Assembly (NCBI GenBank): GCA_905214725.1
Contig: CAJMNH010000004.1
Coordinates: forward strand, 143,441-207,440
Source of the DNA: an uncultured bacterium
GTDB taxonomy: Bacteria > Bacteroidota > Bacteroidia > Bacteroidales > Rikenellaceae
Reading direction: 5' to 3'
DNA: 64,000 nucleotides
In this document: in pieces, positions 45,813 to 47,597 of the stretch
Numbering within the stretch: the stretch's first letter is position 1
Layout: each line of letters begins with the position of its first letter
Position numbers and translations under genes: made by a program
The notes under the pieces: model-generated
The model's input: only the letters and a program-made list of their open reading frames with translations
Databases searched by the model: none
Told to the model about the DNA's origin: nothing

Positions 45813-47597
45813 CTAACGGGCGCAAGGGAGATGGTAGTAAAAATTCTGGTCTATAATCGTTTTCAACAACTTGTCGCCCGAAGAGCCCGAATCGCCCGCA
45901 AAATCCATCATCACGACGCCGGTACATCCCGGATGCGCGACAATATATTCGCAGGCCGCCGGATTCAGTTTCTTGGCATTCGATTCCGGCGTAGTCACGA
46001 TGGCTGTGGCGAGACTCGTGAAGTTGAACAGCCAGTCGAACGACTCTTTGCCGCGCGCCTTATCCAGATAGGCGGTGATCGCACTCTTCTTGGCGTCGGT
46101 ACCGGTCGTAAACCCACCGTATTTATCCTGAATAAAGAGCGTTGCGGAGGCCGAACCGTTGACGATCGACGAGGTCTGGTCCGTCACATCGTCCTGCCAC
46201 GACGTTATCTTCCCCCCGACAAGCGACCCATTGTAGTCCGTCCGCGTGAGAATCAGTATTTTCCCCCGCATATCACCCATTGTCAGGTCGGGCCGGAAAT
46301 CGATGAAACGGTCGCGATAGGCGCTCGAAGCGAGATAGTTCCCCATCGCGGACGCCCACGACGCGCCGTCGCCCTTTCCGCTTTGATACTGCATCTGCAC
46401 GAAACAGGCCTCCGAAGGATTGGCGATCATGTAATCGACCATGGCTGCAATCGCCGCATCGAATGTCACGCCGGTCGAAGAACCGTGGTAAATCATCAGG
46501 TCGTCGGAACCGGTAGGCCGCAGATCGAAGAACCGCACGCCAAGTTCGAGTTGCTGCCGCAACGTCTTGCTCTGACATTTCGACCAGATATCGAGCGTGG
46601 AAGTCGCAGCATCGTGCGTACCCGGAATCGACAGAGCCGAAACATAAGCATCGTCGGGCAGATACGCCATCCATGACGCATAAAATTTCGTTCGGGCATT
46701 CTCATCCATTTTCGGCAAGACTCCCAGTGCAATCGCATAACGCTTACCGCCGGTGAGCGTCTTCGAACTGCTGCGGCCCGCAACGCCGTTCGAAGTCACC
46801 ACGTCTACCCTGAGTCCGATGAAACTGCTCTGCGATACCACCACCGCGATCGCCCGACAGGTTTCGCCTGCGGCCAGTGTTACGCCCGGCGTACCGTCCG
46901 CCTGCAACATCCGTACGGAAACGACATTCGACGCCTCCGTAATCTCGCCGAGACGGTTCGTCCGCAGATCGTACGTAAACTTTCCTGCCAGATTCTCGTT
47001 GGATTGCGTCGAGCGCACGACGATCTGCCGGACTTCGGTTGCCTCCGACGCCTCGAAGGTGATGTCGAGCAGCGTTACGACGGGCCGAAAACGCAATCTT
47101 ACGGCATCGGCGCCCGGTTCGATTTGCTCTTCGGCAGCAGCCAGATAAAGCAAATCGGGATCGTATGCGCCGTCCCTGCACTCCTGCACGGACGGAAGCA
47201 GGGCTTTCACCGTACCGTCGCCCGGAATTTCGAGGTCGGGGGCATCCGCCGGAGAAAAAGCATAGAAATCATGTAACCCCTCGCCCCACTGCTGCGAGCC
47301 GGAAGAGCCGAACGACGCCGAAACGGAAAATTCGTCGGCGCATGTCAGCGTATAACGGTTCACTGCGGGCATAGCCTTTGCACAACTTACGCGCACGGCG
47401 TCGCCGTCGCGCCAATAGACCGGCACCTTCCCGTCGGCGGGATCACCCAACGCAACACGCGTAGCATCGTACGTTCCCTCGAAACGGATCGGCTGTCCGG
47501 CATCGCCGGCAGCGTAGTCGCCGGCCGTATCGCGGGAACATCCCGCGCAAACCATTACCCAACCGAGAACGGAGGCTGCTATTATCAAATTTTTCAT
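45813..47597 (-). CDS. Lipoprotein: N-terminal fimbrillin (Mfa-like) family domain fused to a C-terminal bacterial PI-PLC (PLC-like phosphodiesterase) domain
   Basis: Start trimmed to MKNLIIAASVLGWVMVCAGCS (ATG at 47597). N-terminal half has fimbrillin-family features (IRFEGTYDATRV, WRDGDAVRV, LRFRPVVTLLDITF). C-terminal about 295 aa aligns motif by motif with Bacillus PI-PLC (WM..LPD, SIPGTHDA, GVRFFDLR, IYHG, NPSE, GDMRGKILIL, IQDKY, LFNFTSL). Confidence 0.8.
   Translation of the reverse strand: MKNLIIAASVLGWVMVCAGCSRDTAGDYAAGDAGQPIRFEGTYDATRVALGDPADGKVPVYWRDGDAVRVSCAKAMPAVNRYTLTCADEFSVSASFGSSGSQQWGEGLHDFYAFSPADAPDLEIPGDGTVKALLPSVQECRDGAYDPDLLYLAAAEEQIEPGADAVRLRFRPVVTLLDITFEASEATEVRQIVVRSTQSNENLAGKFTYDLRTNRLGEITEASNVVSVRMLQADGTPGVTLAAGETCRAIAVVVSQSSFIGLRVDVVTSNGVAGRSSSKTLTGGKRYAIALGVLPKMDENARTKFYASWMAYLPDDAYVSALSIPGTHDAATSTLDIWSKCQSKTLRQQLELGVRFFDLRPTGSDDLMIYHGSSTGVTFDAAIAAMVDYMIANPSEACFVQMQYQSGKGDGASWASAMGNYLASSAYRDRFIDFRPDLTMGDMRGKILILTRTDYNGSLVGGKITSWQDDVTDQTSSIVNGSASATLFIQDKYGGFTTGTDAKKSAITAYLDKARGKESFDWLFNFTSLATAIVTTPESNAKKLNPAACEYIVAHPGCTGVVMMDFAGDSGSSGDKLLKTIIDQNFYYHLPCAR

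Follow-up and report, generated by a model that had tools for sequence, protein, structure and literature searches.

Phosphatidylinositol-specific phospholipases C (PI-PLCs) are secreted virulence factors of Gram-positive bacteria, which strip glycosylphosphatidylinositol (GPI)-anchored proteins from host cells and cleave phosphatidylinositol (PI). The enzymes of Bacillus (1ptd, 1gym, 3ea3), Staphylococcus aureus (3v16) and Listeria (PlcA, 1aod) are small toxins consisting of a single, metal-independent triosephosphate isomerase (TIM) barrel. A domain of the same type is encoded in a 64,000-nt stretch of contig CAJMNH010000004.1 (the window, i.e. the whole stretch of DNA analysed here), whose host is a Gram-negative commensal. 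In this case the barrel belongs to a lipoprotein and stands behind a pilin fold of 300 residues, and its gene is located in a cassette that is preceded by an invertible promoter. The parts are known, whereas the combination of an intact bacterial PI-PLC, a type V pilin fold and an invertible-promoter cassette is uncharacterised. The closest genome matches were uncultured Alistipes metagenome-assembled genomes (83% and 72% identity), which identifies the host as Alistipes, one of the gut Bacteroidales, in agreement with the initial annotation of this DNA.

Two further systems are relevant for comparison. The type V pilins, as described in a 2026 cryo-electron microscopy study of the Mfa pilus (PMC13655056), are characterised by lipidation at a Cys, by an anchor strand that leads into a loop with an Arg cleavage site (Arg46 in FimA, Arg49 in Mfa1) and by two β-sandwich domains; C-terminal donor strands are present in the stalk and anchor subunits, whereas the tip subunits lack them. 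Tip pilins with globular ligand-binding heads have also been reported (bioRxiv 10.1101/2024.11.15.621889). The second system is that of the invertible promoters (invertons) located in front of capsule and fimbrial genes of Bacteroidales, an example being the phase-variable Mfa1 fimbriae of Phocaeicola vulgatus (PMC12940148).

The gene under study and the parts of its product are as follows (residue numbers are those of the 594-aa protein):

45813..47597, minus strand: PI-PLC fusion lipoprotein gene, 594 aa, stop codon included
45816..46685, minus strand: bacterial PI-PLC TIM-barrel domain, residues ~305-594 (Pfam, phmmer, Foldseek and family alignment)
46707..47492, minus strand: type V pilin-fold module with two β-sandwich domains, residues ~36-297 (Pfam and Foldseek)
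residues 1-20, minus strand: signal peptide and lipobox, with Cys20 at 47540..47538
residues 36-43, minus strand: anchor-strand-like β-strand (AlphaFold2 model)
47459..47457, minus strand: conserved Arg47 (family alignment)

The C-terminal half had been assigned to the bacterial PI-PLCs on the basis of the motifs WMAYLPD, SIPGTHDA, GVRFFDLR, IYHG, NPSE, GDMRGKILIL, IQDKY and LFNFTSL, all of which were found in the translation, and this assignment was corroborated by profile, sequence-to-PDB and fold comparisons alike. Pfam detected PI-PLC-X (PF00388), the profile of the B. cereus-type enzymes (EC 4.6.1.13), at residues 333-457 with an E value of 3e-7, the score of 30.7 bits exceeding the cut-off of 23.1. 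When all PDB chains were searched with phmmer, bacterial PI-PLCs were the only matches; the best one, to the Bacillus thuringiensis/cereus enzyme (E 5.5e-23, residues 311-575), is far beyond chance, and it was followed by those to the S. aureus (~1e-19) and Listeria (~2e-16) enzymes. An AlphaFold2 model of the 594-aa protein, built on an alignment of 29 full-length homologues, had a predicted local distance difference test (pLDDT) score of 88.1 and a predicted template-modelling score (pTM) of 0.87, and only the signal peptide, the linker and the short loops at residues 45-48 and 55-57 scored low. Residues 305-594, mostly with pLDDT >90, form a distorted (β/α)8 barrel in this model. Comparison of the C-terminal half with the PDB using Foldseek retrieved Bacillus 1ptd/3ptd (E ~3e-20, target template-modelling (TM) score 0.79-0.83), and the target TM score was 0.78-0.83 across 1ptd, 3v16 and 1aod, i.e. 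~0.8 for a barrel that shares only ~25% overall identity with the Gram-positive enzymes.

The active-site residues were mapped through the phmmer alignment to the B. cereus PI-PLC:

H328 and D329: equivalent to B. cereus His32 and Asp33
D358 and R360: equivalent to B. cereus Asp67 and Arg69
H371: equivalent to B. cereus His82
R444: equivalent to B. cereus Arg163
D491 and Y493: equivalent to B. cereus Asp198 and Tyr200
D565: equivalent to B. cereus Asp274

Both catalytic-histidine contexts pointed out in the initial annotation are therefore present, and they are invariant in the family together with the equivalents of Asp33, Arg69 and Asp274. The catalytic residues H328, D329, R360, H371 and D565 showed no variation in the 29 full-length homologues (26-91% identity to the window protein), and the same was true of the inositol-site residues D358, R444, D491 and Y493. 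The inositol-binding residues of the Bacillus enzyme are reportedly Asp67, Lys115, Arg163, Asp198 and Tyr200, so all the catalytic residues and most of the inositol-site residues are identical to those of the Gram-positive PI-PLCs. Judging from these residues, the domain is apparently catalytically intact and active. If the mechanism is that of the Bacillus enzyme, the inositol 2-OH would be deprotonated by His328 and would then attack the phosphate, and His371 (with Asp329) would protonate the leaving diacylglycerol, with Arg360 stabilising the transition state and Asp565 orienting His328. Such a reaction would yield diacylglycerol and inositol 1,2-cyclic phosphate from phosphatidylinositol, or from related inositol-phosphate lipids that the protein encounters at the bacterial surface.

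One important question is which of these lipids would be cleaved, host GPI or PI being one of several possibilities. The substrate might instead be found among microbial or dietary inositol lipids (Bacteroides phosphatidylinositol, inositol phosphoceramide, plant or yeast inositol sphingolipids), used for nutrient harvest or in bacterial competition. Such lipids would be abundant around Alistipes, since inositol lipid synthesis is widespread in gut Bacteroidetes (PMC9246714). In addition, phosphatase and glycan-binding-type domains occur as fusion partners of related PI-PLC domains in other proteins, and the partner gene of the cassette (see below) may carry a carbohydrate-binding-like domain, according to a low-confidence model. 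Against this alternative, the stretch between barrel strands V and VI is retained without deletion relative to Bacillus, with a strand predicted at residues 474-480. This strand is said to contact the GPI glycan in the Bacillus enzyme and to be missing from the Listeria enzyme, reportedly a poor GPI cleaver. The candidate substrates are indistinguishable from sequence, and a substrate other than host PI or GPI is regarded here as possible, although doubtful. Helix B of the domain is 5 residues shorter than in Bacillus and still has the equivalent of Trp47.

The N-terminal half had been described as fimbrillin- or Mfa-like, and this description was borne out. Mfa_like_1 was detected by Pfam above threshold at residues 67-299 (E 3e-9; 37.7 bits against a cut-off of 27), and the PDB structures retrieved with Foldseek were the Bacteroides "putative cell adhesion protein" entries 4k4k, 3ufi, 3t2l and 4h40, together with 4rdb, Porphyromonas gingivalis PG49 and Mfa4 (5dhm), with E values from 7e-11 (4k4k) to 1e-5. 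Hence, the profile search and structure prediction proposed as a check recovered both the pilin fold and the PLC-like barrel with its catalytic histidines.

The ATG-started ORF (open reading frame) at this locus, 45813..47612 on the minus strand, encodes 599 aa, and its numbering is obtained by adding 5 to that used here. The second Met, at 47597, is likely to be the true start, because translation from this point yields a signal peptide with a lipobox and because the stop codon of a small upstream ORF lies 1 nt before this ATG in five species. The resulting N-terminus, MKNLIIAASVLGWVMVCAGC followed by SRD, supports the lipoprotein signal noted earlier, with the lipobox Cys at residue 20 (VMVCAGC before S). 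Cys20 is kept in at least 90% of the family in the 29-sequence alignment, and the protein thus shares the lipoprotein signal of the type V pilins. The acidic residues after the lipidated Cys (CSRDTAGD) resemble the surface-export signal of Bacteroidetes, so the protein is probably transferred to the outer face of the cell or packed into vesicles. Acidic residues at this position reportedly act as a vesicle and surface sorting signal of Bacteroides lipoproteins.

The order of elements along the family, as deduced from the same alignment, is the lipobox Cys, a linker of 15-20 residues, a β-strand with the pattern G-x-x-[VI]-x-F, and an Arg or Lys. Position 47 is R or K in nearly all members and R47 in the window protein (within "TR"); the preceding strand was assigned by DSSP to residues 39-43 of the predicted model. 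Arg47 is located ~27 residues after the lipidated Cys and corresponds in position to the cleavage sites Arg46 of FimA and Arg49 of Mfa1. Apart from the donor strand, the fusion fits the type V pilin features, with the anchor strand and the cleavage at Arg47 being predicted. No C-terminal donor strand is present in the model, since the pilin module is followed immediately by the PI-PLC barrel, whose last helix forms the end of the protein. This C-terminus makes the fusion compatible only with a tip-type or non-polymerising pilin-fold protein.

Compared with the type V pilins (FimA and Mfa1; the tip pilins Mfa4, BovFim1C and the diversity-generating-retroelement-diversified BfrT and BthT), the fusion shares a lipoprotein precursor and two transthyretin-like β-sandwich domains. 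With the tip pilins it also shares the anchor-like strand, the conserved Arg, the lack of a donor strand and a functional head at the C-terminus, but this head is an enzyme, whereas those of the tip pilins are lectin-like adhesins. The fusion is recognised as a pilin fold from sequence and model, and its locus, unlike those of the type V pilins, lacks stalk and anchor genes. No description of an enzyme head on a tip pilin was found in the literature.

These features raise the possibility that the protein is a true tip subunit of a type V pilus. It would then be cleaved at Arg47, its vacated groove would receive the donor strand of a stalk or adaptor pilin whose gene lies elsewhere in the genome, and the enzyme would be placed at the end of the fibre. 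The complete two-domain pilin fold, the anchor-like strand, the Arg at the FimA/Mfa1 position and the lack of a donor strand fit such a role, as does the precedent of tip pilins with globular C-terminal heads. However, no stalk or anchor pilin genes are present in the cassette or in the 64-kb window, where the flanks are serS and a U32 peptidase gene, nor in the distant loci L017-L019 and L029, and the only neighbour is a cargo-bearing paralogue without an evident free donor strand. We consider a genuine pilus tip unlikely. As to the "pilin-like stalk" of the initial annotation, the pilin-fold module stands, and a demonstrated pilus does not.

Another alternative is that the lipoprotein acts at a distance, either shed after cleavage at Arg47 or packed in outer-membrane vesicles, rather than tethered to the cell. 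The conserved Arg/Lys ~27 residues past the Cys is in favour of it, since cleavage there would free the protein from its lipid as in pilin maturation, and so are the acidic residues that follow the Cys, which resemble what is said to be a sorting signal for vesicles and the surface. No Arg-specific pilin protease has been demonstrated in Alistipes, and this alternative seems to us tentative, and less probable than not.

The third main component of the locus is the putative switch upstream of the cassette:

49626..49890, no strand: invertible promoter element (inverted repeats, promoter motif)

Perfect 17-nt inverted repeats, with the sequence AAAATTACATTATGT, are located at 49626-49642 and 49874-49890, and they enclose an AT-rich interior of 231 nt. 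This interior contains a Bacteroidetes -7 motif, TATATTTG, at 49798-49805 on the plus strand, which faces serS and points away from the lipoprotein genes. Three Alistipes species (that of the window and two others, e.g. those of loci L001 and L002) have kept the repeats and a spacing of 231-234 nt between them, whereas the interior has diverged. A TAnnTTTG motif is found at the same internal position in all the species compared. The window is read as the presumed OFF orientation for the lipoprotein genes because the promoter motif faces serS, and this gene has its own TAnnTTTG at 50087, outside the element and 38 nt upstream of its start.

Inversion was observed directly in the sister species, by comparison of the assemblies containing loci L002 and L007. 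The PI-PLC proteins of these assemblies are identical at 585 of 599 positions, and the flanks of the segment are collinear (258/261 bases identical on the left and 246/261 on the right). The interior is identical at 229 of 233 positions only when it is flipped (142/233 unflipped). This indicates that the segment inverts in the sister species, both orientations being present among its assemblies, and it substantiates the guess that the operon might be phase-variable. Among the assemblies with an intact repeat pair, L002 is the only one in which the motif is directed towards the lipoprotein genes; in the window and the remaining 11, it points to serS.

A poly-G run located inside the segment, just upstream of the promoter motif, differs in length between the sister-species assemblies (10 in L002, at ~7770-7780, and 9 at the equivalent, flipped position of L007), and it is missing from the window. 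This run could represent a second layer of variation, by slipped-strand mispairing.

The element shares with the Bacteroidales invertons its short inverted repeats, an AT-rich interior of ~230 nt, the TAnnTTTG motif, its position upstream of surface-protein genes and the presence of both orientations among assemblies. It differs from those known in its target, an enzyme-bearing lipoprotein cassette, and in that the recombinase is not encoded nearby. The core of the sites recognised by the Mpi recombinase of B. fragilis is ARACGTWCGT, to which AAAATTACATTATGT shows no match. Mpi acts from elsewhere in the genome, and by analogy the cognate recombinase of this switch may do the same.

Downstream of the switch, the cassette lies on the minus strand in the order small ORF 1, 535-aa lipoprotein gene, hairpin, small ORF 2, PI-PLC fusion gene and terminator-like site, after which comes the U32 peptidase gene:

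49457..49603, minus strand: small ORF 1, 48 aa, MNRLFIQKNAYEAPQVRIFDVKIEAGFAASGEGSITPGGDDGELNDGY
47797..49404, minus strand: paralogous pilin-fold lipoprotein gene, 535 aa (hhalign and Pfam)
47759..47789, minus strand: 13-bp stem-loop followed by CCTTTTT, directly after the 535-aa lipoprotein gene
47599..47739, minus strand: small ORF 2, 46 aa, GTG start, MKYDRYIPPCIEQVPVTVERGFAATEDGVDSDGFDDGGTPNLDEWD
45755..45769, minus strand: terminator-like hairpin and T-run downstream of the PI-PLC fusion

A 720-nt AT-rich spacer (GC 0.34) separates the cassette from the divergent serS gene (50125..51396, plus strand).

In the 535-aa protein Mfa_like_1 was just under threshold (26.6 bits against 27). Its first ~240 residues aligned with the fusion family in hhalign with a probability of 97.5% (E 8.6e-12), the lipobox, the strand and the Arg included, and by this profile comparison the protein is a paralogue of the fusion with a different C-terminal domain. 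No Pfam family was found in this domain of ~200 aa (residues ~330-535). The AlphaFold2 model of the 535-aa protein was poor (pLDDT 53.8), and its weak Foldseek matches to jelly-rolls of carbohydrate-binding module (CBM) families 4/16/22/30 give only a hint that the C-terminus is possibly CBM-like. If such a domain were real, a glycan-binding protein would be paired with the PI-PLC. The same succession of genes (small ORF, pilin-fold gene, small ORF and fusion gene) also occurs in another genomic setting, with 46-47% identity.

The stem-loop between the two lipoprotein genes was found at the same position in all five loci aligned (four species). The sequence of the stem differs in each species while the structure is the same, and these compensatory changes point to selection for the hairpin, which is probably a terminator or an attenuator setting the ratio of the two gene products. 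This opens the alternative that control by the inverton does not extend beyond small ORF 1 and the upstream pilin-fold gene, and that the PI-PLC gene forms an independent unit, constitutive or otherwise regulated. The 13-bp GC-rich hairpin with its T-run after the upstream stop codon, kept through compensatory changes, would be expected in that case. However, the gap between the hairpin and small ORF 2 is 20 nt, the coding-strand interval from the switch to the PI-PLC gene (47600-49600) contains no other TAnnTTTG, and the two genes remain syntenic at 46-47% identity. An independent PI-PLC unit is conceivable, but we are inclined to doubt it; co-regulation of the PI-PLC gene with the upstream gene by the switch is the more economical reading.

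Overall, we think it probable that an invertible promoter drives a cassette of two genes for paralogous pilin-fold lipoproteins at this locus, and that the second lipoprotein carries a putatively metal-independent PI-PLC on a surface-displayed scaffold of the non-polymerising or tip type. The cassette, inserted between serS and the U32 peptidase gene, would probably be driven by the invertible promoter, so that the orientation of the 231-nt segment would set expression ON or OFF (OFF in the window). The precursor would be exported by the Sec pathway, processed by signal peptidase II and lipidated at Cys20; the lipoprotein would then probably be flipped to the cell surface or loaded into vesicles, where the pilin module would serve for display.

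Several observations weigh against this reading. In the enzyme domain, the residue equivalent to Lys115 is Gln in the lineage of the window, whereas the family consensus is Arg or Lys (most of the remaining family has Arg, Lys, His or Gln), and the rim-loop Trp242, which binds the membrane in the Bacillus enzyme, is absent from the window protein in the alignment. As regards the switch, all five assemblies of the window's own species (5/5) are in the OFF orientation, and the flipped form was not found among them. The junction expected from the flipped orientation in this species is CCGACAAAATTA joined to AACATAATGTAAATTTT and then to ATTTAAC; two metagenome scans, one for the flipped (ON) junction and one for any junction of the window species, gave no match in a collection that apparently lacks the species. 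No recombinase domain was detected in any of the sizeable ORFs scanned in the window, and no inverted repeats were found upstream of the distant loci L017-L019, and it may therefore be that only the close Alistipes clade has the switch. Furthermore, the strong, conserved, GC-rich, terminator-like hairpin between the two lipoprotein genes might leave the PI-PLC gene poorly or separately transcribed, and the literature contains no reports on the enzymology or localisation of any member of the family.

The distribution of the fusion was surveyed with an exhaustive HMMER search of 1.84 billion cluster representatives, which yielded 4285 proteins at E <1e-3. Among the best 150 of these 4285, at least 34 representatives of 50%-identity clusters align over both domains, and the fusion architecture is by these alignments a real, sizeable family and not a singular invention. 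Of the 29 aligned members, 22 were assigned PI-PLC-X by Pfam and 19 were assigned Mfa_like_1; the database names in the family include "fimbrillin family protein" and "hypothetical protein". In other relatives the PI-PLC domain adjoins BACON, DUF4988, purple acid phosphatase and further modules. The domain of the window protein shares 36-44% identity with that of many other multidomain proteins, and BACON and DUF4988, which are typical of Bacteroidota, are found in at least one of them. A recent import of the domain from Firmicutes was considered and rejected, given that the identity to the enzymes of that group is ~25%.

If the protein is surface-exposed and switched ON and OFF, a commensal genus of the Bacteroidales that is common in the gut could remodel the membranes of its host or of neighbouring cells; alternatively, it could use the enzyme to obtain inositol phosphate and diacylglycerol. 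Enzymes as well as adhesins would then have a general scaffold in the type V pilin fold. As the family comprises at least 34 clusters at the 50% level, one study of biochemistry and localisation would be enough to annotate many proteins.

The small acidic ORFs that precede both lipoprotein genes represent a separate lead on how such lipoproteins are made. They are 46-48 aa long in the window and 37-65 aa as called in related loci, and they share a pattern consisting of Y-x-x-P, a short alternating hydrophobic stretch, E-x-G-F-A-x-S and an acidic, Gly/Asp-rich tail that often ends in W-D or W-N. A six-frame scan of the window revealed exactly two copies. The stop codon of small ORF 2 lies 1 nt before the PI-PLC ATG, and the conservation of this junction in five species suggests that the two are translationally coupled. 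In the core of small ORF 1, six synonymous and zero amino-acid changes distinguish the window from L001, and such a pattern of changes indicates that the peptide itself is under selection.

The same pattern was found upstream of fusion homologues with 47%, 46%, 39% and 33% identity in other genomic settings, and also upstream of a pilin-fold protein bearing leucine-rich repeats and of a 295-aa lipoprotein with no recorded Pfam family; it was absent upstream of one fusion of the 670-aa class. A profile search retrieved 69 relatives, all of them unnamed proteins, and the named organisms were Alistipes. The small ORFs had no match in Pfam (E up to 10), NCBIfam or PDB profiles, and no signal sequence was found in them. 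The related ORFs were located at the following positions:

L007, 1917-2057 and 3802-3999: related small ORFs
L017, 1715-1858 and 3794-3946: related small ORFs
L019, 1786-1938: related small ORF
L029, 3803-3943: related small ORF
L020, 3501-3614: related small ORF
L025, 3501-3617: related small ORF

The idea that the peptide supplies a donor strand in trans is weakened by the lack of a signal sequence. A broader speculation, to which we give a low probability, is that a small acidic ORF and a pilin-fold lipoprotein constitute an unrecognised two-part module in Alistipes and its relatives, which displays interchangeable cargo (PI-PLC, leucine-rich repeats or CBM-like domains) on the pilin scaffold and whose peptide is required in translation, in export or in assembly by strand complementation; in that case the PI-PLC member would represent the first enzyme-tipped, phase-variable type V pilus-like structure.

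The rest of the window is ordinary chromosome, with mutL, grpE, mutS2, lptD, serS, panC and several peptidase genes. Rfam returned nothing meaningful in 45500-50300. A 458-aa, GTG-started ORF at 50041..51417 on the minus strand had no Pfam match and was discarded as an antisense overlap artefact of serS in high-GC sequence. Peptidase genes are dense in the same 25 kb (36271-40656, 43850-45724, 52450-55353 and 57436-59487), where they encode two tandem M3 oligopeptidases, one of them with a lipoprotein signal, and U32, M16 and M49 peptidases.

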